64,000 nucleotides of DNA from a virus, in the IMG/VR virus record IMGVR_UViG_3300048606_000054; one strand, given 5' to 3'. The notes under the pieces are model-generated. The model ran no database searches. It saw nothing but the letters and a program-made list of their open reading frames with translations, and was not told the origin of the DNA. The stretch's first letter is position 1. The number at the start of each line of letters is the position of its first letter. Positions 8,901 through 44,903 of the stretch are shown one piece after another. Made by a program: the position numbers and the translations under genes.

Positions 8901-9437
8901 TTAAGGTTGCTCAATCGGTTCGCCGAAATCTACACCTCCAGCAACTGCATCTCCGCTTAACACTTCAATAGCAATGTCCTCAAACGGAATATCCTGTCCC
9001 GCTTTATTGGTTGCCTTGATTGTAAGAGCGGTAACGCCAGGTTGACCAGCGACAACCGTTACAGTGTTTGTTGAATCTTCATAAGTTGCGGTAGCTATGC
9101 TGGTATCAGCTACAGTAAGTGTAACTGCGCCGTCCGGCACATCCGTAACTGCCAGTTTTTTGTCTTTGAAAGTAAGTACGCCAGAGGCTTGCTGAGTGTC
9201 GGTTAATGAAAGTGCCATAATGTTAAGTTTACCTTTTATTGAATTGATTAATGAATTGCCTTCGTAAATAGACAAGGATGAAAAAAATCCTTCCACCTTG
9301 TTATCTTCTTGGGAGTGATCGCATTCCTTGCAACACGATTTCTCATAAATATTTACAACTACCATAATAAGTATGATTAATAAGATGATGATGATACCAA
9401 ATAGGATATTCTGAAGCGCCATGACCGAAAGATACAA
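8901..9437 (-). CDS. Membrane-anchored Ig-like domain protein (likely start 9422; possible internal start 9218)
   Basis: N-terminal hydrophobic helix; C-terminal beta-rich Big_2-like segment (VADTSIATAT...VTVVAGQPGVTALTI). Confidence 0.6.
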   Translation of the reverse strand: MYLSVMALQNILFGIIIILLIILIMVVVNIYEKSCCKECDHSQEDNKVEGFFSSLSIYEGNSLINSIKGKLNIMALSLTDTQQASGVLTFKDKKLAVTDVPDGAVTLTVADTSIATATYEDSTNTVTVVAGQPGVTALTIKATNKAGQDIPFEDIAIEVLSGDAVAGGVDFGEPIEQP

Positions 9438-9467
9438 AAACCCCGTTAAATACCAATATGGGCATAA

Positions 9468-9632
9468 TTACCTCACTACTATATGGTTGCCAAGACCCGC
9501 TCCATTAAGAATGAGCAATATTAGAAGAACCAGGAAGAAAATGTTGATAGCCTTCTGTGGAACCTTATCCGTTAAAACAAGGATCAGGAAAACAACGGCT
9601 ATGACAAGTAGAATAATGGAGATGATGCTCAT
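9468..9632 (-). CDS. 54-aa two-TM membrane protein (not in ORF track)
   Basis: MSIISIILLVIAVVFLILVLTDKVPQKAINIFFLVLLILLILNGAGLGNHIVVR; A-rich upstream region. Confidence 0.6.
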   Translation of the reverse strand: MSIISIILLVIAVVFLILVLTDKVPQKAINIFFLVLLILLILNGAGLGNHIVVR

Positions 9633-9675
9633 AATTGTTGGTTTTTTAATATATGCATCAAAAGGAGGGCCAAAG

Positions 9676-9701
9676 AAAAGGGCGGAGTAGAAACCCCACC
9701 C
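9676..9701 (-). terminator. Intrinsic terminator
   Basis: GGGTGGGGT-TTCT-ACTCCGCCC-TTTT, 9-bp stem with GU pairs. Confidence 0.6.
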
Positions 9702-9788
9702 CGTTTTTAAAATCCAATATCCAATGAAAAACTAGAATGCAAGGTATATTAAAATGAAAAGTCGGTTGATGTCTAATGAGACAACTTA

Positions 9789-10061
9789 TCAATTATGTAA
9801 CTTTTGCTGAGGCATCGGTATACATTGACCACAATGCTTACACTGAAGCCAATGGGAAGATTCGTTTACTGGATTGATAGGGGCATTATTTGTCGTGGTC
9901 TGAGTTACCATTACATACTCATGCTTATCGCAATGACTTTGAACAAGTAAAGAGTTTTGCTGATTTACTTTCTTTCCCAATTCAAAATTTCCCATAAAAA
10001 TAATTTTAAAAATAAAAAAGACCCTTGCGCTGTTCTCCTGTTTCCAGTTGACAATCAACAA
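9789..10061 (-). CDS. Hypothetical protein with Cys/His motif (true start probably internal MGNFELG)
   Basis: HCDKHEY...CKHCG. Confidence 0.45.
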   Translation of the reverse strand: MLIVNWKQENSARVFFIFKIIFMGNFELGKKVNQQNSLLVQSHCDKHEYVMVTQTTTNNAPINPVNESSHWLQCKHCGQCIPMPQQKLHN

Positions 10062-10081
10062 GGGCTATGACTGGGTCATCA

Positions 10082-10351
10082 TTATTTTGATTGAGCCAAT
10101 GGGAGAGTGGCAAAGTATTCATCCAATATACCCCACGCGCTATCCCTGTTTGGGTGCTTGGTTTTGGATGGATCAATAACCCTTGAATATAGAGCGCCAG
10201 TGTGTTGGTCTCCTTCAAATACGGCCCACGTAGCGATAGCGTAAAAATATTCTACCGTCATGTTTTTATTACCATTGAAGAAAGTAAACCTGACCTTTGT
10301 GCATACGTAATCCATAATTGAAAAATTTAGCGAATACAAACATACTTCCAT
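10082..10351 (-). CDS. Hypothetical protein
   Basis: Operon position; probable start at MDYVCTKV. Confidence 0.5.
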   Translation of the reverse strand: MEVCLYSLNFSIMDYVCTKVRFTFFNGNKNMTVEYFYAIATWAVFEGDQHTGALYSRVIDPSKTKHPNRDSAWGILDEYFATLPLAQSK

Positions 10352-10662
10352 AAACTTTCAGATACAATAGTGGAAGTACTCGATTTTATACTATAAGCCT
10401 TAACTGGTGCGGGAGTTGGCAGCGGCTCTGGTGGTGGTAAGGTTACAACATAAAAAGAATAACACCAGCTACCATTGGCATTCTGATAAACCTGGGGGTT
10501 GATAGCCATAACAGCCCCCTCATGTGTGGCTATATACGATTGCGCCTTTGCAACACCCGCCGTAATCGCAAAGGTTTGAAACGCGTACCCACATCCACTA
10601 ACCTTCTGTGAAAATGAACATACCGAAGCGCATAATAGCGCGATAACAAAAAACAATTTCAT
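10327..10662 (-). CDS. Small secreted protein with signal peptide and Pro-rich linker
   Basis: MKLFFVIALLCASVCSFS|Q signal peptide followed by Gln; PPPEPLPTPAP. Confidence 0.65.
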   Translation of the reverse strand: MKLFFVIALLCASVCSFSQKVSGCGYAFQTFAITAGVAKAQSYIATHEGAVMAINPQVYQNANGSWCYSFYVVTLPPPEPLPTPAPVKAYSIKSSTSTIVSESLWKYVCIR

Positions 10663-16163: not shown

Positions 16164-16715
16164 ATGAAAAAAATCACTTTTTTGTTTCTATTACTGAGTG
16201 TAACTGTGGGCTGTTTTGCTCACATAATTACACCAACTTGCGCTACAAATGGAAGATTTAAGTTTCAGGGATCGCTATTCCCTACAAATGGAAATGTGCG
16301 CGTAACTGTGGTAAATTCTCAAGATCAGCCGGTAGGCATTTTTGACACTGTGTTCGCCTCTAAAGCTACATTTACATTCTCTATTCCAAAGCCAGCAAAC
16401 ATTAACTATCGCATAAGGGTACGTAGTCAAAACAGTAGTGGCAATATCATTACCTGGGAGGGATTCAGCCAAACTACTTCAGCGGTATGCAGCACATTAC
16501 CACTTAAATTCGGCTCATTCAAAGTTGAGGATTTGGGCGATAAAGTGGTAAAGGTTTCATGCACTACTTATGACGAAACGGATATGGACAGGATCAACAT
16601 AACAATGAGCCGGGAAGGACTTGAATTTAAAATCGTGCTGGTTCTCATGCCGAGAAATGTTAATACCGAATACACGTACACTGGAATTATTGACCTTAAA
16701 AACCAACTTAAATGA
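16164..16715 (+). CDS. Secreted protein with host T9SS-cargo-like beta-sandwich module
   Basis: MKKITFLFLLLSVTVGCFA signal peptide; TLPLKFGSF...VKVSCTTYDE...ITMSREGLEF resembles the LPVxLxxF-initiated domain of Bacteroidota T9SS cargo. Confidence 0.6.
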   Translation: MKKITFLFLLLSVTVGCFAHIITPTCATNGRFKFQGSLFPTNGNVRVTVVNSQDQPVGIFDTVFASKATFTFSIPKPANINYRIRVRSQNSSGNIITWEGFSQTTSAVCSTLPLKFGSFKVEDLGDKVVKVSCTTYDETDMDRINITMSREGLEFKIVLVLMPRNVNTEYTYTGIIDLKNQLK

Positions 16716-16876
16716 AAAAACTTATAATCCTGGCCATTGTAGCCTGCGCTTTCATTGGCTGTTCAAAAGAGGCCACTATTCAGCAAAAGCCTACTGAGAC
16801 TTATTTATTCAGGGCCGAAGCCGTAAGCATTGGCGGCACTATTAAATACTCAAGCATTGTATCTGTAACCTTATAG
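16712..16876 (+). CDS. 54-aa lipoprotein (not in ORF track)
   Basis: MKKLIILAIVACAFIG|CSKEATIQQKPTETYLFRAEAVSIGGTIKYSSIVSVTL; lipobox; ATGA overlap. Confidence 0.7.
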   Translation: MKKLIILAIVACAFIGCSKEATIQQKPTETYLFRAEAVSIGGTIKYSSIVSVTL

Positions 16877-16897
16877 TAAACTTAAACCTACAAAATC

Positions 16898-17380
16898 ATG
16901 AAAAAAATGACATTTCTGGCGATTCTTATCGCCGCGTTAACGACCACCCGCGCTCAAGTTTCACTCTCTCTGCCTTTTGGTATAAGCACCCTAAAGGCTC
17001 CTACGGTTGGCTTAAACTTGCAAGCCAGAGTCCGAGGGGTAATCCTTGCCGCTGGCTTTGACAATCAAATAAGCCGAGATATTATGAAAGGGAATTTATT
17101 ATGGACAAGGGTAGGAGCCGCGTTTAACCTGTCAGACCTCAACGCCCTGGAAATATCCGCTGGAGCGGCCCAACACAGGCGTAGCAGTGATATTAAGAGC
17201 CTGAATGAGGGGTTAGCCCTTGTAAACGTGCAATATGTACACCAGATGGCATCAAGGCCAGAAGCGGCCTTATTTGCTTCTATAACAGCAACTCAAAAGT
17301 TTGCTATTTTTGCTGGCGGATTAAGGTTTATATTCGGCAAGAATGGAGGGAATGGCTGTCCATCCAAACGGATAAGATAG
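16898..17380 (+). CDS. Putative small outer-membrane beta-barrel protein
   Basis: Signal peptide ...TTTRA|Q; about 8 amphipathic strands ending FAGGLRFIF. Confidence 0.6.
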   Translation: MKKMTFLAILIAALTTTRAQVSLSLPFGISTLKAPTVGLNLQARVRGVILAAGFDNQISRDIMKGNLLWTRVGAAFNLSDLNALEISAGAAQHRRSSDIKSLNEGLALVNVQYVHQMASRPEAALFASITATQKFAIFAGGLRFIFGKNGGNGCPSKRIR

Positions 17381-17804: not shown

Positions 17805-18419
17805 TCAAAGACTTGTTGTATTTAATTCTGTTCGATTTTGATCTACATCTCCTTTAATTCCCTTTACCTTTCCCTTTGCGCTATACTGCCATATTTTGTA
17901 TTTACTCCATCCATTGGGAAGTTTTGGTGTAGCCTTGTTTACATAAGCTGCAAGCCAGAGAGATGTGGTGCCTAAATCATGATCCTTTGGAAGATTGGAA
18001 TTTAAGAACGGGGTATAGCTATACAACATATAATTGTTGTGCTCTAGCGCCACCAACTGAGCAAAGAAAGTTTTAATCCATATCAATACTTCTTTGGGGG
18101 ATAAATTAGCTTTGTTATCCTCAATATCTAACACCAATGGGAGTGTAGTTTCTGGACATTTTTGAATAGTAGATACAAAAAATGTCGCTTCCGCTCTAGC
18201 GTCTTCAATTATATTATGAGTATTTAAACTGGCATAATGATAATATCCAACTGGAATACCAACTGCCTTTGCTTCAACTGAATTATATTTTAATACAGAA
18301 TCAACATACCCAACTCCCTGGCTTGCCTTCATAAAAATGAAATCAAGTTTTGGTGTATTCTTTACTACTTCTGTCCAATATATTAATCCATTATGATGTG
18401 AAATATCGACTCCGTACAT
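17805..18419 (-). CDS. Endolysin, GH25 muramidase
   Basis: GVDISHHNG...FMKASQG...GYYHY...LVLDIED...LWLAAY...WQYS. Confidence 0.9.
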   Translation of the reverse strand: MYGVDISHHNGLIYWTEVVKNTPKLDFIFMKASQGVGYVDSVLKYNSVEAKAVGIPVGYYHYASLNTHNIIEDARAEATFFVSTIQKCPETTLPLVLDIEDNKANLSPKEVLIWIKTFFAQLVALEHNNYMLYSYTPFLNSNLPKDHDLGTTSLWLAAYVNKATPKLPNGWSKYKIWQYSAKGKVKGIKGDVDQNRTELNTTSL

Positions 18420-18432
18420 ACATTTAAGTTAT

Positions 18433-18696
18433 TTAAAGTTCTATGTCATCATCAGAAGCCGCCTGTTCTATGGTTTCTAGAACCATATCAATAAGGCCAT
18501 CATCAATCTTGCTTTTTGTCTTAACCGCAACTTCTTTTAGCAATGTAAAAGAGGAGTGTATGCTCTTAAGAGTGCTGGTATACATCTCTATAGTATTATG
18601 TTCTTTTATCTTTGACAGAATTTCCGACAATTCGGCTTGTCCTACTGCCTTGATAGCTGGCAAAAATGTGCTTACTAAGATTTCTTTTAGATTCAT
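18433..18696 (-). CDS. Lysis-region hypothetical protein
   Basis: Between holin and endolysin; TKSKIDD pattern. Confidence 0.5.
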   Translation of the reverse strand: MNLKEILVSTFLPAIKAVGQAELSEILSKIKEHNTIEMYTSTLKSIHSSFTLLKEVAVKTKSKIDDGLIDMVLETIEQAASDDDIEL

Positions 18697-18729
18697 AATT
18701 GTTGATTTTATTGTTAATAATCTCTCTAT

Positions 18730-19038
18730 TTATTTGGCATCTGAAAGTGTGCCGGTTGACGTATCCTGTATCTTTACTTCAACATCTCCTTCTTTTACGG
18801 CCTTTACTATTTCAGAATTGGTAATTACCACCTCGGATGGAGAAAGGAAATTCTTCAAAATGTACCCCAATCCTCCTCCCGCCGCGCTAATCCAAATAAG
18901 ATTCCAATTGAAGGTCAAAGAACCTTGATTTATAGAATTTAACATTGTCGTAAAAATTGGCGTTAGGACAGCAACTACGAGTCCTTTTATTGCATCTCTC
19001 CAATTAAGAGTAAACTGTGATGAGGTTGTTTGTGCCAT
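18730..19038 (-). CDS. Putative holin
   Basis: FTLNWRDAIKGLVVAVL...FNWNLIWISAAGGGLGYILKNFL two-TM pattern next to endolysin. Confidence 0.65.
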   Translation of the reverse strand: MAQTTSSQFTLNWRDAIKGLVVAVLTPIFTTMLNSINQGSLTFNWNLIWISAAGGGLGYILKNFLSPSEVVITNSEIVKAVKEGDVEVKIQDTSTGTLSDAK

Positions 19039-19048
19039 TGTATTGGTT

Positions 19049-19369
19049 TTATTTTTTAGTATACAAAAGAATTATTGATATAGCCGTTAGTACCCACGGC
19101 ACAAATTTTAAAAGATCGCTTTTGCCCTCCTGCTTTATCTTGTAATCAGTTAGTATTTTGATTTCTTTTCTTAACTCATCTACTACCCTGTCAAATACTT
19201 CTCTAGGTATATACTGTTCTTGAATGCCACGCAATCTCGCTGCTTCCCCATTCAAATCTTTCAACCTTCTTTTATACTCCTTCGCTTGAAGTTTCAAGGC
19301 ACGACTTAACGCTTTAAGTTTATTATTGAAGTATTTCCTTATCGTTTCTATAGTCCATCCTTTGGTCAT
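19049..19369 (-). CDS. Coiled-coil protein with C-terminal TM anchor (lysis-associated)
   Basis: Heptad-rich body, FVPWVLTAISIILLY C-terminus. Confidence 0.55.
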   Translation of the reverse strand: MTKGWTIETIRKYFNNKLKALSRALKLQAKEYKRRLKDLNGEAARLRGIQEQYIPREVFDRVVDELRKEIKILTDYKIKQEGKSDLLKFVPWVLTAISIILLYTKK

Positions 19370-19373
19370 TTAT

Positions 19374-21743
19374 TTAATTTACACAGAAAGTAGTATTGTT
19401 TTCGTCTGTATACCCTGGAGGCAAAAACCAGTATACTTTTTTCCAGTCAACGGGTATTGGCTTATTTAAACAAAACTTGTTATTAGACAGTATAATTGGA
19501 TCGGAATTATTATTAGCATCCCCTCTTAGAGCGCCAAGTTTTTTTGGAAAGTTTATCTGATTGCCGTTGAAGTCAAGCCCTTGTTTTGGATTAATTTCTA
19601 CAGTGTTGACATAAGCCTTCCAATATATACTCTCTTCCCCATTTACATTTTTAACTGTGTTTCCTACATTCGTAATTGTATTATTATAACACTCCATCAC
19701 TCCATAGCCAAAAAACTGTATACCATTACCTGTCCCATTAGTTACTGTATTGTTATATACATTACTGTTGGTATTTCCTCCGCTGATTATACCAGCTCTT
19801 TGACCATCAATGTCGGCTATGCCAAAATTTGTTACTTTGTTATTGAAGATAAGACCGCCATTACGGGCGTTTGACAACTGTATTCCGTCCCAACCTGTAT
19901 TTATAACAATGCAATTGGAGATAGTCACACTGTCCTGCCTCTGCGGAACCAGACCTCCGTGGGATGGATCACCTCCGGGGTATGTATGGCCTATGTACAT
20001 GCCCTCGCCAGCCACATCGTGGACATAACAATTATTGATGGTTATCTTGGTGGATACATAATTCGGGTACTGCGTCCACGGTTGTCCTTCTATTGGGTCT
20101 TGCTTGCCATATATGCCCACCCCGCCCGCGCTTGTGCCATCTGGCAGGTTTGGCCCCGCCTCGATCCATTCCATCGTGAAATGATTAGCCCTGTTGAATC
20201 CAAAGTTTTTACATCTGAATCCGTAGGCCAATCCACCGAATCCATTGCCAAGGATTTTTACATGATGTACGTCCTTCTGCAACCTGATTGGCCCGGTTAC
20301 ATTTACCAGACCACCGGAGTTTATAATTACAATATCGCGACATGGATCACCTCCAAAGCTATCTATTTCAATAACAGAATAATCGCCAGCGGGAATCTTT
20401 AGCGTATCTCCTCCTTTCCACCCTTTCGCGCTAGCGTCCAGAATATAAATCTCACCAGGCTTTGTCGGTTCTACTATATAAGAAACTGACTTGTTTGGAT
20501 TGCAAGCTGGATTGGGAGCGGGAGTCGTTTTAAGCGATTGCCTCGCCATCCATTGGTAAAGGTTCTGACTAATGCCACCTAAAGAAAAGTTGACGGGTTG
20601 AACTCCCTTGCCCCCATAGAACTGTTCCCAGCAGCAATGTGAGCCATCACTGAAATTGGTTTGTACATATATGGCGGAGTTGGGAACTATGGAATTCATG
20701 AAATTCACCCTGGTGGGCATGCCCCTATTATCCAATCGCTGTTCAAATCCGAGTAGCTTTCCGCCTGATTTGGCGAAATTGGCGAACAGTCCTGGGTATG
20801 GCGAATTATCGTCGGGTACAACTCCCTGCACTTCCACAACCGCGGCTATCTGTGAGGCGTATGTATAAGGGCCGCCTAAAGGATCGCCAGTAACGAAGGT
20901 CGTGGCGCACCAGCCGCCATGAGATAATCCAGTCAGATACAATCTCTTTGGATCAACCCGGTATAATGATTTAATCGTTTGTATTCTTTGATTAATAATA
21001 TTTTCAGTTGGGTACGCCGCTGGAGGCTGTAGGCTGATGATAATAAACTCAACCGTGGCTCCATCAACTGATACGTTCCCATTCCATCCTTGGGTTATAT
21101 ATGCGCCGGGGCCGTTGGCGATAACTGCCGGGGCGTTCGTTCCTATTTCGCCTGTTCCGGGGAAAAAGATAATCGTTGGATAAGTCGCCGTTGAACCGTT
21201 GTAGCTCGCCGGCAAATGCACATAAGCGTTCCAGCCGCCGATTTGAGTTAGTGTTTGTCCTGTTGAGGTTGTAGCGGCCCCTACGGTAATATTAACATCG
21301 TCATACCCGGTCGCGCCCTTGTCATCGGTTACCGTTAATCTGAAACCATATGTGCCCTGCACAAGATTTGATACTCCTGTAATGGCGCTGAATTGATTGG
21401 TGAAACTGAGGGTGGTTGGCCCCGATACCCTCGACCACGAATAACCTGTAACCGTTCCGTCAGAATCAGTCCCGGAGCCGATAAGGGTTACAGCATTGGT
21501 TGGGAGTTTTATCGACTGATCACCTCCGGCCTTTGATACAGGTGGTTTGTTTGGAACAGGGGGCTTGTATTTTCTTACTGATTGTTCAAGAAAGCTGGAT
21601 GTTATAGTCTGCTTTACAGTTACAATTGACTGGATTAAAGTGTCTAGGTTTGCCAATGGAAGCACCTGCGTTGTTCGGGAAGTATCCTGAGAAAAGCAGG
21701 TTGCTGAAAATAGTAAGAATAGTATAATTATTAGTTTTTGCAT
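19374..21743 (-). CDS. Secreted PKD + alpha/beta-hydrolase + right-handed beta-helix protein (789 aa from ATG 21743)
   Basis: MQKLIIILFLLFSATCFS|Q; PKD (NKPPVSKAGGDQSIKLP...GTYGFRLTVTDDKGATGYDDVNITV); GLSHGG nucleophile elbow; parallel beta-helix repeats (ISNCIVINTGWDGIQLS). Confidence 0.8.
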   Translation of the reverse strand: MQKLIIILFLLFSATCFSQDTSRTTQVLPLANLDTLIQSIVTVKQTITSSFLEQSVRKYKPPVPNKPPVSKAGGDQSIKLPTNAVTLIGSGTDSDGTVTGYSWSRVSGPTTLSFTNQFSAITGVSNLVQGTYGFRLTVTDDKGATGYDDVNITVGAATTSTGQTLTQIGGWNAYVHLPASYNGSTATYPTIIFFPGTGEIGTNAPAVIANGPGAYITQGWNGNVSVDGATVEFIIISLQPPAAYPTENIINQRIQTIKSLYRVDPKRLYLTGLSHGGWCATTFVTGDPLGGPYTYASQIAAVVEVQGVVPDDNSPYPGLFANFAKSGGKLLGFEQRLDNRGMPTRVNFMNSIVPNSAIYVQTNFSDGSHCCWEQFYGGKGVQPVNFSLGGISQNLYQWMARQSLKTTPAPNPACNPNKSVSYIVEPTKPGEIYILDASAKGWKGGDTLKIPAGDYSVIEIDSFGGDPCRDIVIINSGGLVNVTGPIRLQKDVHHVKILGNGFGGLAYGFRCKNFGFNRANHFTMEWIEAGPNLPDGTSAGGVGIYGKQDPIEGQPWTQYPNYVSTKITINNCYVHDVAGEGMYIGHTYPGGDPSHGGLVPQRQDSVTISNCIVINTGWDGIQLSNARNGGLIFNNKVTNFGIADIDGQRAGIISGGNTNSNVYNNTVTNGTGNGIQFFGYGVMECYNNTITNVGNTVKNVNGEESIYWKAYVNTVEINPKQGLDFNGNQINFPKKLGALRGDANNNSDPIILSNNKFCLNKPIPVDWKKVYWFLPPGYTDENNTTFCVN

Positions 21744-21765: not shown

Positions 21766-24603
21766 TTAATAAACGATTGCGCTGACCCTAAAGGTTCCAC
21801 TTGCTGGATTAATATTACCTGCTGCCTGACTATTTAAAAATCTTACCGTAACCGTGTTAGCTGATGAAACCCAGGCACTATAGGAGCTATTGGCGGCCGT
21901 ACTTGCATTTGGAACACCTACAGATACGGATTCGCCTCCGGATAATCCCGTTACCGTAATAGTTAGATCACTAGATGTATTTGGCGAGGTGTCGGGAAAA
22001 TCCAGTGTCGCCGTGTTGGTAAGTGTTTTAGCGAATGTGTACCTGGTTGTAGAGGCTGTTCCAAAATAATTAGTTCCATCGAATTCCATAGCCCCCGCTT
22101 CTGGAGTTGTCATATTGGTTCCAGAAGTAAATTTTATTGGAGCCGACACGGCGGCGGTTGTTCCAGCGGGAAGAGTCAATCTTCCGGCAGCTACCGTTGT
22201 GGTTCCTATAATCAGACTGCCCGCGCTGGTTGCCCGGAAAGCCTGAGTTCCTGATATGTTAACTCCTACAAGATCGTTTGATAACGCGCCCAAATAGAAG
22301 CCGGTTCCAGCGGGAGTGGAGCTGTTTGAAAGTAGAAGAGTAGCGCCAGCCGAGTTATTGGAAACGATGATAGTCCGTGTATCCGCGTTTCCAGCGCCCA
22401 AGATAACATTGAACACGGATAGCGCCGCCTGTACGCCTGTATAGCTGCTCGCGACTCTCAATGAACCTGTCGGAATGTTAACAGCTATATTATCCGTAGT
22501 GGCTCCTGAAGCGGAGAAGGAGGCCCCTATATTTGTTCCAGAAGTGGCGTTTGTATTTGTTGTCGCCACATCCAGACCCGTCGCTGTAACGCCGTTGGTT
22601 GCATTTGCTCCGCTTACCCTGATTTCAAGGGCTTTGTTTCCCGCCGCGAGAGCGGTTGATGTAGTATTAAGCGAAAGCAGGTTTCCCGTAGTAAGCGAAC
22701 TGCTGTTCCATTTAAAGGACGTTCCCGTGGTAAGTGAATTATTGTCTATGGTGTGAAATGTTTCCGTATTGCTTCCATTCGTCCACGCGTTTAGTTCCGC
22801 GTCATCCCATGATAATGTCTGGGTGCCTGTAGGATTGGTAATTGAATTCCAAGACGCGCCTCCACCACCTCCGGCGAACGCCCACGCGGTTTTAAATACA
22901 TCCCCGTTTGAATTAATTCCTAAAATCTTAATTCCGGAAGTATCAACTGGAGCGGTAGCGATATTTTTAATCGTTACAGTATCGGTAAAAAGACTTGAAC
23001 CATTAACCATGAATTTTTTATATAGCCGATATTGGTTCATTCCCACGGCATGGTTTACTACCATATTACCGTTTCTCCACCACCTTGTCATATTGGCGTG
23101 ATTCGCGCCCGTTTCTATTTGAACAAAAAAACCAGTTCCATTATTATCATAGACTCCTGAGCTATAACCCTCGCTTCTAATATACGCGCCCCTGCTATCC
23201 CTGCTTGTGGGCATATAAGCCCCATACAGTGCCGTGTACGCGCTGTCTTGCGAACTAATGGTCATGACTCCCTCATCGAATATAGACTTTGGCATTTCAA
23301 CGGCAAGACTAAGAGCGGCGGCTATGTTCGCGTGCAACGAATCGGTATACCAACCCTTACCGGTTACATAGGTTCTATATCGTAGACCTTGTGTATTATT
23401 TTGACGCGTAGGTGTGGTACTTGGGCCGAAATAAGCGAATCCTTTATTTACAAGTATATCCGTATCGCCAGCCGCGTAAAATGAATACCCGTTGTCAACC
23501 GTGTTTGTATACCTATATTGAGGGTCTACGTACAATCCGTATCCATTTTTTACAGTAGCTACTAATAATGTCTTCGCCTTGGTAGCGCCACTGATAAGTG
23601 GATACCCATCGCCATAAACCCGTAAGCCAAACATATTTTCCCAGTAATTACCTGCCTCATAGGTCGCCATGTTGATGGCGGTCTGGTAACTTTTATACAT
23701 GGTCGTAAACCCGCTAATTCCAGCGCCAACAATCTTTTTCCTTCTGGTATTGTCGATAACTCTCATAAGGTCAATACTTGTACGGGCGGCGCTTATTGGG
23801 AATAAGGGCAATGATGTTTCTGGAACAATATTCATATTATATCCCCAACTATCCCCAATGTCCAATTGACCAAAAATTACATTCCCACTCTGGCCGTCTC
23901 TTCCCACTTTTAAAACCATGCTATCTCTTGGAGGAAAATATTGATAAACAAATTCTCCCCCTTGTCCGGCAAGTAGTTCATTTCTGGCCCCCGCTTTAAA
24001 GATCGTGGAGTTTGAATCCCTTGAAATCCTGGTAATAGTCGATAGAGCGCCCCCATAAAATACAGAATCTATATCTCCATTAGCTTCCGAGTAAACCCTT
24101 TGAAGACCTAGCGTAGCGGGGTTATAAGTAAGAAGATATGGATACTTTGGCAGTATGCCGTTCAATGATTGAGCTTCTGGTAGGTTTCCTAAAATTAAAG
24201 CGTTATACCTACTTCCATTCTTTAAGTGACTTAATACTTGAATATATGTCAACCTATTCATGCTATCTCCTAAAATTGTTGTATCTCCTGACATGGCAAT
24301 GCCATTGGCTACCAACGATGGGCCTACTCCTATTCGAAGCCACGCCGTAGCGGCCTGGTTCCTCATCCACAACACATTCCCTGTCCTTATGGTTATGCCA
24401 GGTATATTTTTTATAAATGAAATATTCGCTGTAACGGTATCTTGAAAATTTGTTCTATATATAAATCCGCTGTCACTCCCCAGTCCTCCTTTGGAATATA
24501 CCTGAGTAGTGGAGGAGCCTAAAGATTGTTGCAAGGGGAATTGGCCGTATGAATAAATCGAACAAGCCCAAAAAAATAATATTGTGAACAGTTTTTTCAT
24601 CAA
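21766..24603 (-). CDS. Tail-fibre/spike-like protein carrying an N-terminal Sec signal peptide
   Basis: MKKLFTILFFWACSIYSYG|Q; G/S/T/N-rich fibre body; C-terminal ATLDFPDT...LTITVTG...WVSSANTVTVRF...NPASGTFRV module typical of phage fibre tips. Confidence 0.7.
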   Translation of the reverse strand: MMKKLFTILFFWACSIYSYGQFPLQQSLGSSTTQVYSKGGLGSDSGFIYRTNFQDTVTANISFIKNIPGITIRTGNVLWMRNQAATAWLRIGVGPSLVANGIAMSGDTTILGDSMNRLTYIQVLSHLKNGSRYNALILGNLPEAQSLNGILPKYPYLLTYNPATLGLQRVYSEANGDIDSVFYGGALSTITRISRDSNSTIFKAGARNELLAGQGGEFVYQYFPPRDSMVLKVGRDGQSGNVIFGQLDIGDSWGYNMNIVPETSLPLFPISAARTSIDLMRVIDNTRRKKIVGAGISGFTTMYKSYQTAINMATYEAGNYWENMFGLRVYGDGYPLISGATKAKTLLVATVKNGYGLYVDPQYRYTNTVDNGYSFYAAGDTDILVNKGFAYFGPSTTPTRQNNTQGLRYRTYVTGKGWYTDSLHANIAAALSLAVEMPKSIFDEGVMTISSQDSAYTALYGAYMPTSRDSRGAYIRSEGYSSGVYDNNGTGFFVQIETGANHANMTRWWRNGNMVVNHAVGMNQYRLYKKFMVNGSSLFTDTVTIKNIATAPVDTSGIKILGINSNGDVFKTAWAFAGGGGGASWNSITNPTGTQTLSWDDAELNAWTNGSNTETFHTIDNNSLTTGTSFKWNSSSLTTGNLLSLNTTSTALAAGNKALEIRVSGANATNGVTATGLDVATTNTNATSGTNIGASFSASGATTDNIAVNIPTGSLRVASSYTGVQAALSVFNVILGAGNADTRTIIVSNNSAGATLLLSNSSTPAGTGFYLGALSNDLVGVNISGTQAFRATSAGSLIIGTTTVAAGRLTLPAGTTAAVSAPIKFTSGTNMTTPEAGAMEFDGTNYFGTASTTRYTFAKTLTNTATLDFPDTSPNTSSDLTITVTGLSGGESVSVGVPNASTAANSSYSAWVSSANTVTVRFLNSQAAGNINPASGTFRVSAIVY

Positions 24604-42668: not shown

Positions 42669-44903
42669 TTATGCACGGCTTAAAGCATTCATTAATGAAC
42701 CGAAAGACAAAGAGGAATTATTATTGTTCTGGCCACTTAGTAAGATAGCCGAATATTGGTCTTGGGTAAACAAGCAGTACCCCCATGCCATGAAGAGGTC
42801 AAATACCTTTGTGTCTGTTATATCCACTCTCATCAATTGGTCAACCAGTCTCTCCGACTTTAAAGTATCTCCATAATTCTTTTCTCCGGGGTCTGACGCT
42901 TTGATAAACCCTATAATAAGCCTTACAAAATATTCCAGCAGTTCCCTTGTCTGGGGATTATTGGAAGTAGTTCGTATTAAATGATATTCCTTTTCTTCTT
43001 CATGTGGAAGTCCCATCCATCTTTCCCATATCTTATACGCCCCATGCTTATCCTTTATCATCATGAACCGCCCTAGTCCCTCTCCCATTAGCCTGGTAGC
43101 CATTTCAGGAACGTTTGCTTCCACTGTACATAATGAGCCTGTATAAATGATCAATTTAAGAAGGTCTTCATACGCTTCGTCGGGCAATTCTGGCCTGTCA
43201 AAATATTCAAAGGTTTGTACTCCGCTTGAGACTTTACCCAACAAAGAATCTAGCCTTTGATCTTTTGCGCTCATGCAGTAATACGCATTCTTACTTCCTT
43301 CTATCACTTCACTGGCTGCGGCATGTTGCGTAGGGTCGGCCCCAAGGAATGATCGGAAAACATCTGGGGGAATGATACACCCCCATTCGTCTCTTCCATT
43401 TTTAAGAATTGAGTTCTTTTGAACATCGGGAATGTCATTATAAATACGGAGTCTCCCTTTTTTATTTTCTCTTTTCTCCTTATCTGTTATCGGAACAAAT
43501 TTAACTGGACAGAACTCACCTTTTGGCCTTTTATTCTTCAGACCCAATTCCCAATGTGTGATACTCCATTCTAACTTCCCTTCTTGATATGGAGTTGTGG
43601 GAGAACTTCTCTGCTCTTCTTCTATATTGTACAATATCTCTGCAAGTCTTGCTCCATCGAATATGCTACCCGATCCTCCAGCAGACCATGCCTCTCTTTT
43701 GGTATTGGCATATCTTCTGGTTTCAGCAAGCAATTCCCTGGGCGTGTCTCTTAATTGATCCCTTCTGACTTGGATTCTTTTCATTGCCTCCACTTCGTTA
43801 CACTTCCCGTATTTATTAAAGGCTGATCCCCAAGATTGGTAGGCCGGAATGTGATGGCAAATCATTTTTGATAAAGTTCTGCCTCCAGACTCAGGCGTAA
43901 TAGTTCTTAATTCTGAATCATAGAATATCTTTTTGGCTGCCAAAAATGATGGCGCTTCACCTTCCGGCGTGTAAGAGGTGAGCCATTTTTTACCTACCGA
44001 TATATCTTGAATATTAGTACCAGCTTCATTTGATCGGAATATTTCTCCAAAATCTTTTGTGTATTTAGGCGGCTCATCATACCAGATGTCTGCAAAAACA
44101 TCAACGTCAAATGCATTTACCATAGTTGGCACACACATAACTGTTGTATTAAGCTCTTCTGCTGATGCATTTTTTGATCGACCTTTCTTTGAATTGTTAA
44201 CTCTTTCCCCAAATGTTATTATACCATCTGCTTCTGATTTAGTTTTTATACTTGGTTTTAGTGGAGAAGGAAGCCCGTTGTACGCATACATGAAATGATC
44301 TCTGAAAGTCTTTGCTCCTTTATTTTGATCCAAATTCATGTTTCCGTTATTGATATTCTTGGTCATTGTACCCTTGTTAAGGTAATAACACCAATGCAGG
44401 TTTGTTATGCCTGTTTTTTTTGCCTTGCTTATATCAAGCCCATCAATTACAGGAGAGTTATTGACATAATAAATAAGATAGAAATAATGAGCTTGAAATT
44501 CTCTATAGTCAAAATAATCGCTAATTTTATCTGGGCGCTTTGTTTTGCACCATGCCAATGTAAACCAATGATCACCAGTCAGCCAATCAATACCTTGTCC
44601 ATTCTTAATGAACACCCCATAAGTTCTCCGATGCCATTCTCTTTCATAGGCCCACATCATCCAATCAGAATCTTCTTTATTTAAAGAAGTAAGATTCCCG
44701 TCCTGATCGTATAAAGTAGCTGCTTGATATAATTTAGTTCCATCTCTGCCAGGCACGAAATCGAACCAAATAGGCTTATAGTCCAATAAAGCCTGTTCTC
44801 TATTCCAGCAAGGGTCTTTCTGATCAATGAACAGAATTTCTTCCTTTTTCTTTGGTTGTGGAATTGGAACCTGATGCTCTCCTATTAAAATTATCTTACT
44901 CAT
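42669..44903 (-). CDS. terL: Terminase large subunit
   Basis: crAss-like N-term (WLTGDHWF..W), Walker A-like SKAKKTGIT, Walker B IWYDEPPK, nuclease LGADP...VEAN...DLFMAWG. Confidence 0.85.
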   Translation of the reverse strand: MSKIILIGEHQVPIPQPKKKEEILFIDQKDPCWNREQALLDYKPIWFDFVPGRDGTKLYQAATLYDQDGNLTSLNKEDSDWMMWAYEREWHRRTYGVFIKNGQGIDWLTGDHWFTLAWCKTKRPDKISDYFDYREFQAHYFYLIYYVNNSPVIDGLDISKAKKTGITNLHWCYYLNKGTMTKNINNGNMNLDQNKGAKTFRDHFMYAYNGLPSPLKPSIKTKSEADGIITFGERVNNSKKGRSKNASAEELNTTVMCVPTMVNAFDVDVFADIWYDEPPKYTKDFGEIFRSNEAGTNIQDISVGKKWLTSYTPEGEAPSFLAAKKIFYDSELRTITPESGGRTLSKMICHHIPAYQSWGSAFNKYGKCNEVEAMKRIQVRRDQLRDTPRELLAETRRYANTKREAWSAGGSGSIFDGARLAEILYNIEEEQRSSPTTPYQEGKLEWSITHWELGLKNKRPKGEFCPVKFVPITDKEKRENKKGRLRIYNDIPDVQKNSILKNGRDEWGCIIPPDVFRSFLGADPTQHAAASEVIEGSKNAYYCMSAKDQRLDSLLGKVSSGVQTFEYFDRPELPDEAYEDLLKLIIYTGSLCTVEANVPEMATRLMGEGLGRFMMIKDKHGAYKIWERWMGLPHEEEKEYHLIRTTSNNPQTRELLEYFVRLIIGFIKASDPGEKNYGDTLKSERLVDQLMRVDITDTKVFDLFMAWGYCLFTQDQYSAILLSGQNNNNSSLSFGSLMNALSRA

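Follow-up and report, generated by a model that had tools for sequence, protein, structure and literature searches.

A phage esterase–beta-helix protein nested among type IX secretion cargo of Chitinophagaceae, and its possible release as a depolymerase at lysis

Introduction

What use would a phage have for an enzyme that is built like a tailspike but carries a leader for export? The question is raised by a gene on the minus strand of the 64,000-nucleotide stretch of virus DNA analysed here (hereafter the window; IMG/VR record IMGVR_UViG_3300048606_000054), which is part of a 91.8-kb contig from a soil phage with Chitinophagaceae hosts. Its product, P0001, combines a predicted signal peptide, an alpha/beta-hydrolase esterase and a right-handed beta-helix in 789 residues. 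An earlier note, made from the sequence letters alone, had taken it for a secreted protein of host type that lacks the C-terminal domain (CTD) used for sorting by the type IX secretion system (T9SS), and had offered three functions: a spike matured in the periplasm, an enzyme released at lysis, or an enzyme that strips receptors from inside the cell for superinfection exclusion. In the analysis reported here P0001 falls into a phage clade nested among CTD-bearing proteins of Chitinophagaceae, and of the three functions it is release at lysis that is placed first.

Several parts of this picture have precedents. Phage depolymerases, soluble ones included, are already known, and so are phage proteins that follow the Q-rule of Bacteroidota export: phages of Porphyromonas gingivalis encode small proteins with a predicted cleavage before Gln by host signal peptidase I (PMC10367356). 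Those proteins are small and have no assigned function, whereas P0001 is a large enzyme of two domains that can be traced to an ancestor in the host. What is new is the tracing of that ancestor to a polysaccharide locus, the loss of the T9SS tail with the gain of an N-terminal module in what appears to be a single origin, and the spread of the gene as a cassette among unrelated phages.

Results

Loss of the T9SS tail and origin from a host enzyme

A word-indexed search returned about 40 close relatives of P0001 (66–78 per cent identity, 650–850 amino acids (aa)), all without a CTD, as well as numerous Chitinophagaceae proteins that do carry a CTD and match P0001 over part of its length only; an exhaustive search extended the family to 2121 proteins at E ≤ 0.001, in which the two catalytic domains occur together or apart. 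At least 36 distinct relatives have the same build as P0001 and are referred to below as phage-type proteins. Their counterparts in Chitinophagaceae are cargo proteins with an esterase–PKD–beta-helix–PKD–CTD build (P0021, P0022, L007 and L010, with the two domains split in L009), which are 63–70 per cent identical to P0001 in both catalytic domains, share its triad and conserved cysteines, and form the sister clade in the trees described below. The two types differ consistently in build. The phage-type esterase follows a short N-terminal module (N-module), with or without a PKD domain, whereas the host-type esterase comes right after the leader; the phage-type esterase and beta-helix abut, whereas PKD domains lie between them in the host type; and the phage type stops at the beta-helix, whereas the host type runs on into further PKD domains and a type A CTD.

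Profile searches bear out the missing tail. Residues 600–789 of P0001 had no NCBIfam match to the type A T9SS domain (TIGR04183/PF18962) at E ≤ 1, with the controls P0021 and P0066 passing TIGR04183, and NCBIfam and Pfam scans of the whole protein and of its C-terminus gave no match to the type B domain (TIGR04131/PF13585). Our own CTD hidden Markov model (HMM), built from 37 CTD-bearing matches, found 20 of the 21 homologues from Chitinophagaceae genomes (the sole exception is cut off by the end of its contig) but, at E ≤ 10, not one of the 36 proteins of phage type. That such host proteins typically end in a CTD, as the earlier note had held, is supported by these counts, and the findings that would have told against the note (a cryptic CTD, a lipid anchor, host homologues without a CTD) were looked for and did not appear.

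Phylogeny places the loss on the phage side. In a FastTree tree of 119 two-domain proteins the phage type forms one clade, with a local support of 98 for a 35-row core, and P0030 attaches at an unresolved fork of a 40-row clade with four host proteins among its members. An IQ-TREE analysis (LG+C20 with posterior mean site frequencies) of 53 two-domain proteins gave the phage clade an SH-aLRT of 92 (21 phage rows) and its 20-row core one of 99. With the root placed on distant two-domain proteins, the phage clade is sister to four CTD-bearing Chitinophagaceae proteins, and both lie inside a larger CTD-bearing clade. Because the phage proteins are nested in this way, the CTD was probably lost on capture, as the earlier note had supposed from the sequence of P0001, and a single capture from a host accompanied by CTD loss would be the simplest history. 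The same nesting is what a soluble, burst-released depolymerase encoded by a host-derived gene should show. The N-terminal PKD domain is present or absent across scattered branches of the phage clade, which suggests that it has been shuffled repeatedly.

One more distant enzyme, P0099 (L005:10001-12421), is 49–52 per cent identical and lies in a temperate-phage-like contig (integrase, S24 repressor, Phage_tail_2). It is without the N-module, has a C-terminal PKD domain followed by a beta-sandwich tail, and falls elsewhere in the tree, so that it looks like a separate, second capture. By eye the tail of P0099 is CTD-like, but neither TIGR04183 nor our own CTD HMM matched it, and it was not called a CTD.

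Searches of other collections added no relatives: PHROGs contains no family for P0001, tblastn matches to neither P0001 nor the adjacent fibre-like protein P0259 turned up in 50,697 phage records, and a pattern scan of IMG/VR confirmed none. A look-up of sequencing runs found the gene only in the likely source soil metagenome, and no RNA run that contains it is listed.

A polysaccharide locus in the host

The closest host homologues stand at the end of a conserved polysaccharide locus (on the P0022 contig and in L007 and L009), and the same gene sizes recur in L008 and L011. The locus encodes one or two Acyl_transf_3 O-acyltransferases, a Wzx-type flippase, GT1, a Wzy_C polymerase, an OEP-like protein and GLF (UDP-galactopyranose mutase), together with a further CTD protein and a UbiA prenyltransferase. 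Esterase and beta-helix are adjacent separate genes in L009 and L008, each with its own leader and CTD, and are fused in L007 and L011. Fusion or adjacency in the same locus suggests that the two activities belong together and, by context, that they act on an O-acylated polymer containing galactofuranose. Polysaccharide loci of this kind commonly include genes for enzymes that trim the exopolysaccharide of the cell itself, RbmB being an example.

Domain architecture and predicted catalysis

The PKD domain, the alpha/beta hydrolase and the right-handed beta-helix that had been recognised by eye are each recovered by profiles or by structural models, and the motifs GLSHGG (271–276) and HCCW (369–372) and the ending ...NNTTFCVN are as quoted earlier. 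The PKD domain (residues 72–154) has a K319L-like match in Pfam at E 3.7e-24. In sequence models the esterase has only a weak NCBIfam match of the polyhydroxybutyrate (PHB) depolymerase kind, on the GLSHGG nucleophile elbow; the domain shares fold and triad with the PHB-depolymerase type but is no member of the curated family TIGR01840 (esterase_phb), its 19.4 bits falling below the cutoff of 107.85. A profile of 40 relatives matches the carboxylesterases 4q82, 3doh and 3wyd and CE1 esterases. The structural model of the domain, with a predicted local distance difference test (pLDDT) score of 93, likewise matches 4q82 in Foldseek (E 3e-10, template modelling score 0.65–0.73) and further CE1 and carboxyl esterases. 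Ser274, Asp338 and His369 follow the canonical strands of this model (106–116, 172–178 and 200–205) and are invariant across 36 of 36 phage-type proteins. With a G-x-S-x-G elbow and a triad in canonical order, the modelled domain is an alpha/beta-hydrolase serine esterase.

The beta-helix is matched by Pfam Beta_helix (PF13229) over residues 566–757, at 26.5 bits against a cutoff of 25.9, and its model has a pLDDT of 94. VIA-align superposed it with Z scores of 24–28 over about 280–307 residues on Vibrio RbmB, a lyase of Vibrio polysaccharide and the top structural match, on the epimerases AlgE4/6 and AlgG, and on PL6 lyases, GH enzymes and tailspikes. These matches form a flat plateau at 10–18 per cent identity, which shows the modelled fold to be a polysaccharide-active one. 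The last invariant cysteine of the domain is Cys787, and the protein terminates two residues later.

Export signals

The start codon determines whether there is a leader at all. The longest frame would begin at GTG 21800 (808 aa; P0002 in the protein collection) and overlap the upstream gene by 35 nucleotides (nt), but M-(K/R)-x-L opens all complete homologues at the point that corresponds to ATG 21743, so that this codon, the start chosen in the earlier note, is the true one. The open reading frame (ORF) from this codon is free of stops over its 789 residues.

The predicted leader has a Lys-containing n-region, a 13-residue hydrophobic core, small residues at −3/−1 (C-F-S) and Gln at +1. Gln at +1 follows the Q-rule for signal peptidase I (SPI) sites in Bacteroidota (PMC5837995, PMC10653852), and with its n–h–c order and no lipobox P0001 is predicted to be a Sec/SPI substrate of this class. 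Although their leader sequences differ, 34 of 34 complete phage-type relatives share a basic N-terminal end, a hydrophobic core and an (A/S)-Q site. A lipoprotein anchor at Cys16 was considered and rejected, this cysteine being present in only 9 of 36 relatives.

Two further features fit folding outside the cytoplasm. Among the 36 phage-type proteins Cys370 and Cys371 are both present in 30 and both absent in 6, and Cys414 and Cys468 are both present in 28 and both absent in 8, with no mixed cases for either pair, while five further cysteines are invariant. Such co-variation and invariance would be expected of disulfides, bonds that are made outside the cytoplasm. The O-glycosylation sequon of the host group, D-(S/T)-(A/I/L/V/M/T) (PMC8550257), occurs at 3.2 per 100 aa in the N-modules and at 0.33 in the catalytic part, a difference of about 10 times. 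It recurs in N-modules of unrelated sequence (P0019, P0009 and P0030), but most N-modules are homologous and the enrichment is suggestive only. A search with the N-module alone recovered members of this family and no others (proteins of 383–1220 aa with shared 5-residue words).

Gene order and transcription

As had been noted earlier, the gene lies between fibre and lysis genes (Table 1). It begins 22 nt after the stop of the 944-aa fibre-like gene, and the next gene follows 4 nt downstream. Scans for sigma-70 promoters, terminators and the Bacteroidota-type TTTG...TAnnTTTG promoter found nothing above chance near it, and this, with the tight packing of the genes, leads us to infer joint transcription of P0001 and the late genes. 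Among the genes downstream, no spanin pair was recognised.

Table 1. Features of the P0001 gene and its surroundings, in window coordinates unless a contig is named.
Feature	Position	Strand	Basis or remark
Whole gene P0001, 789 aa plus stop	19374..21743	-	ORF and homologue N-termini
Predicted Sec/SPI signal peptide, aa 1-18, predicted cleavage CFS↓Q	21690..21743	-	sequence features
Phage-specific N-module, aa 19-66, Thr/Ile/Val-rich, D-T-L sequon, Pro-rich linker	21546..21689	-	absent from bacterial homologues
K319L-like PKD domain, aa 72-154, optional in family	21282..21530	-	Pfam
Alpha/beta-hydrolase esterase domain, aa 165-411, predicted triad Ser274/Asp338/His369	20511..21251	-	model and profile matches
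Right-handed beta-helix domain, aa 412-789	19377..20510	-	Pfam and model
P0259, 944-aa fibre-like protein with predicted Q-rule signal peptide (SYG↓Q)	21766..24600	-	upstream of P0001
Lysis cassette: 106-aa C-tail-anchored coiled-coil, 102-aa holin-like and 87-aa proteins, GH25 endolysin (17805-18419)	17805..19369	-	downstream of P0001
Segments of the L037 context	L037:4240-5163 and 8994-10232		

Phage contexts and cassette mobility

Eight phage contexts of the gene were read. In seven of them, all tail-end contexts (the window, L001, L002-4, L005, L006, L038 and L039), the gene precedes small membrane proteins and an endolysin of the GH25, M15/VanY, CHAP or Amidase_2 type. The eighth, the 76.7-kb contig L037, has it among small genes, with a sigma-70-family gene ahead of it, a convergent recA behind it and no tail or lysis genes nearby. 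The enzyme is 72–74 per cent identical between contigs whose other proteins share 18–32 per cent identity or nothing detectable. Identity so far above that of the backbone indicates that the gene moves as a cassette.

Discussion

There is, in our judgement, about an even chance that P0001 is a late, exported, non-virion depolymerase/deacetylase that is released at lysis. This reading is favoured by the mobility of the cassette, by the L037 context, by the lack of a shared adaptor and by descent from a free secreted enzyme. P0001 would be a phage copy of a host enzyme that acts on the host's own surface polysaccharide, pairing a serine O-acyl esterase with a beta-helix glycanase or lyase. Its ancestor would have been a T9SS cargo of a Wzx/Wzy-type, O-acylated, galactofuranose-containing polysaccharide locus in Chitinophagaceae, and after a single capture the phage lineage would have lost the PKD domains, both internal and C-terminal, together with the CTD, while retaining the signal peptide and acquiring the short Thr-rich N-module.

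The events in the infected cell may be pictured as follows. The P0001 gene would be transcribed along with the late genes for tail and lysis, Sec would export the product, and cleavage would fall just before Gln19, after which the protein would fold in the periplasm with its disulfides formed and its N-module possibly O-glycosylated. Having no route through the outer membrane, it would stay in the periplasm, where Wzy chains are assembled, until lysis frees it as a soluble enzyme that could deacylate and cut the coat polysaccharide on debris and on neighbouring cells, making the release and spread of progeny easier. The Sec leader would have been retained because the enzyme is adapted by its history to extracytoplasmic folding, and the CTD would be dispensable because lysis does the job of the T9SS.

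The nearest functional parallels are PghP and LevP of Bacillus phage phiNIT1, which are apparently host-acquired, late, non-structural depolymerases of host extracellular polymers that are released at burst (PMC6966330). P0001 resembles them as a phage-encoded, host-derived enzyme probably directed at a host extracellular polymer. It differs in its unrelated folds and two-domain build, in its Gram-negative Sec leader of the Q-rule class and its descent from a T9SS cargo by CTD loss, and in that its non-virion status is a prediction.

Several observations weigh against release as a free enzyme. In seven of the eight contexts the gene stands at the end of the tail module, after one or more signal-bearing fibre-like or small proteins, which is the classic slot of a tailspike, and the conserved, phage-only N-module could be a docking element. 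In the cultured Cellulophaga phage phi10:1 the proteins gp091–gp095 (L036, NC_021802:41847-48878) all begin with Q-rule leaders, and gp091–gp094, among them the 777-aa pectate lyase gp093, are annotated as structural 'based on experimental MS/MS proteomics analysis' (tandem mass spectrometry), although gp095 is not. The fold searches (PDB, BFVD and Swiss-Prot models) do not separate lyase, hydrolase, epimerase or mere binding, and the conserved acidic residues of the beta-helix do not map to the catalytic set of PL6, PL9, PL31, GH28, GH136 or other CAZy families. The link to the host locus comes from a few metagenome-assembled contigs.

Several of these points lend themselves to a second reading, less probable but possible, in which P0001 is a virion spike matured in the periplasm: exported, processed and perhaps glycosylated, it would bind the virion at or after lysis, either directly or by way of P0259. 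Its slot beside a signal-bearing fibre-like gene would then be explained, as would the gain, in the phage clade, of an N-module that host proteins lack, and a beta-helix fold is common to tailspikes. The phi10:1 annotation implies that a leader does not exclude presence in particle preparations, and in both phages several proteins with Q-rule leaders follow one another between tail and lysis genes, in phi10:1 with beta-helix 'pectate lyases' among them. Detection there could also reflect co-purification, and it is gp095, the last signal-bearing lyase before the phi10:1 lysis genes, that is not annotated as detected by mass spectrometry; moreover, the phi10:1 proteins have no detectable sequence similarity to P0001. 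Among the papers searched, none discusses signal peptides of flavobacterial phage tail proteins, those of phi10:1 included.

The case for a spike is further weakened by the distribution of the gene. The same N-module and enzyme occur on backbones without detectable shared tail proteins and, in L037, away from any tail genes; the N-module was found on no other cargo in the search by shared 5-residue words; and there is no known route for a periplasmic protein into a tailed virion built in the cytoplasm. The tailspikes of P22, Sf6 and CBA120 (TSP2) resemble P0001 in acting on surface polysaccharide with a right-handed beta-helix (Z about 25), but they have no signal peptide, carry N-terminal virion adaptors and form trimers, whereas P0001 has a predicted signal peptide and an N-module unique to its own family. 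A virion-borne esterase, G7C gp63.1, reportedly strips O-acyl groups. The wider proposal that P0001 and the signal-bearing fibre together are exported host-recognition gear, processed by the host in the periplasm (pyroglutamate cap, disulfides, O-glycans) before joining the particle, strikes us as rather doubtful; if true, it would amount to an extracytoplasmic step in tailed-phage assembly. In the tail region of the window there is also a 1084-aa protein, P0260 (26087-29341, minus strand), which is unusually Cys-rich, has no Pfam or PHROG match and lacks a signal peptide, so that the phage is not obviously left without a cytoplasmic receptor-binding protein.

Mycobacteriophages use the esterase LysB as an accessory to lysis, and a comparable role for P0001, which would loosen an envelope-linked polymer (a coat polysaccharide or an acylated outer-membrane component) from the periplasm once the endolysin has acted, is improbable. 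The serine esterase domain, a place next to cassettes with four different types of endolysin and the lack of a recognised spanin pair all speak for it. The host homologues, however, are T9SS-secreted enzymes of polysaccharide loci and not envelope-lysis factors, the L037 context has no lysis genes nearby, and a form of the family with the beta-helix only (P0115) exists. The role least likely to apply, and a very unlikely one, is the editing of receptors from inside, with acyl groups or chains stripped from nascent surface polysaccharide to block superinfection or, in temperate relatives, to bring about lysogenic conversion: the predicted periplasmic location coincides with that of Wzy polymerisation and some relatives lie on integrase contigs (L002, L005), but the gene is tightly packed in a late operon with no promoter or terminator signal of its own above chance, and exclusion genes are normally expressed early or from a prophage. 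Of the functions first offered for this protein, then, the lysis-released enzyme comes out ahead, the spike survives as a live rival, and superinfection exclusion is ranked last because the gene sits in a late operon without its own promoter.

If P0001 is indeed released at lysis, it would be a clean and traceable case of a phage re-routing the cargo of a host secretion system, with Sec kept, the T9SS sorting tail dropped and lysis left to do the releasing. Its ancestry makes an O-acylated polysaccharide of the Wzy type, produced by Chitinophagaceae, the likely target; hardly any phage biology exists for this group of soil bacteria. Among Bacteroidota phages, export signals recur on proteins of the tail end; P0001 adds an enzyme of known ancestry to this pattern, which thus becomes testable, since cleavage, glycosylation, location and activity can all be assayed on one protein. 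The P0001 family is also a candidate source of enzymes that degrade biofilm matrix.

Neighbouring genes and minor observations

Besides the GH25 endolysin, the window encodes an HNH endonuclease and a large terminase (42669-44903). The 106-aa coiled-coil protein directly downstream of P0001 (19049-19369, minus strand) has a single C-terminal transmembrane anchor and a weak similarity (33 per cent over 63 aa) to its positional counterpart in L001, and may belong to the lysis cassette. In L038 (8353-8628) and L039 (5418-6405) small proteins with a signal peptide or lipobox come after the enzyme gene, so that the exported set continues towards the lysis genes.

Beyond the lysis genes of the window lies a convergent 'envelope cassette' (16164-17380, plus strand) that consists of three genes, for a secreted protein of 183 aa, a lipoprotein-like ORF of 54 aa and a protein of 160 aa with a signal peptide. 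The cassette is 60–81 per cent identical to genes in the same place in L001 and L006, the backbones of which are otherwise divergent. Far from the tail module, a 111-aa ORF (10327-10662, minus strand) has a predicted Q-rule signal peptide (…CSFSQ↓K).

L001 also encodes a 115-aa protein (16576-16923, minus strand) of which BLAST found no homologue in the window. It has a precomputed Pfam match to GldL_N, the N-terminal part of a T9SS/gliding motor protein, and might serve the phage by mimicking or inhibiting the T9SS motor.

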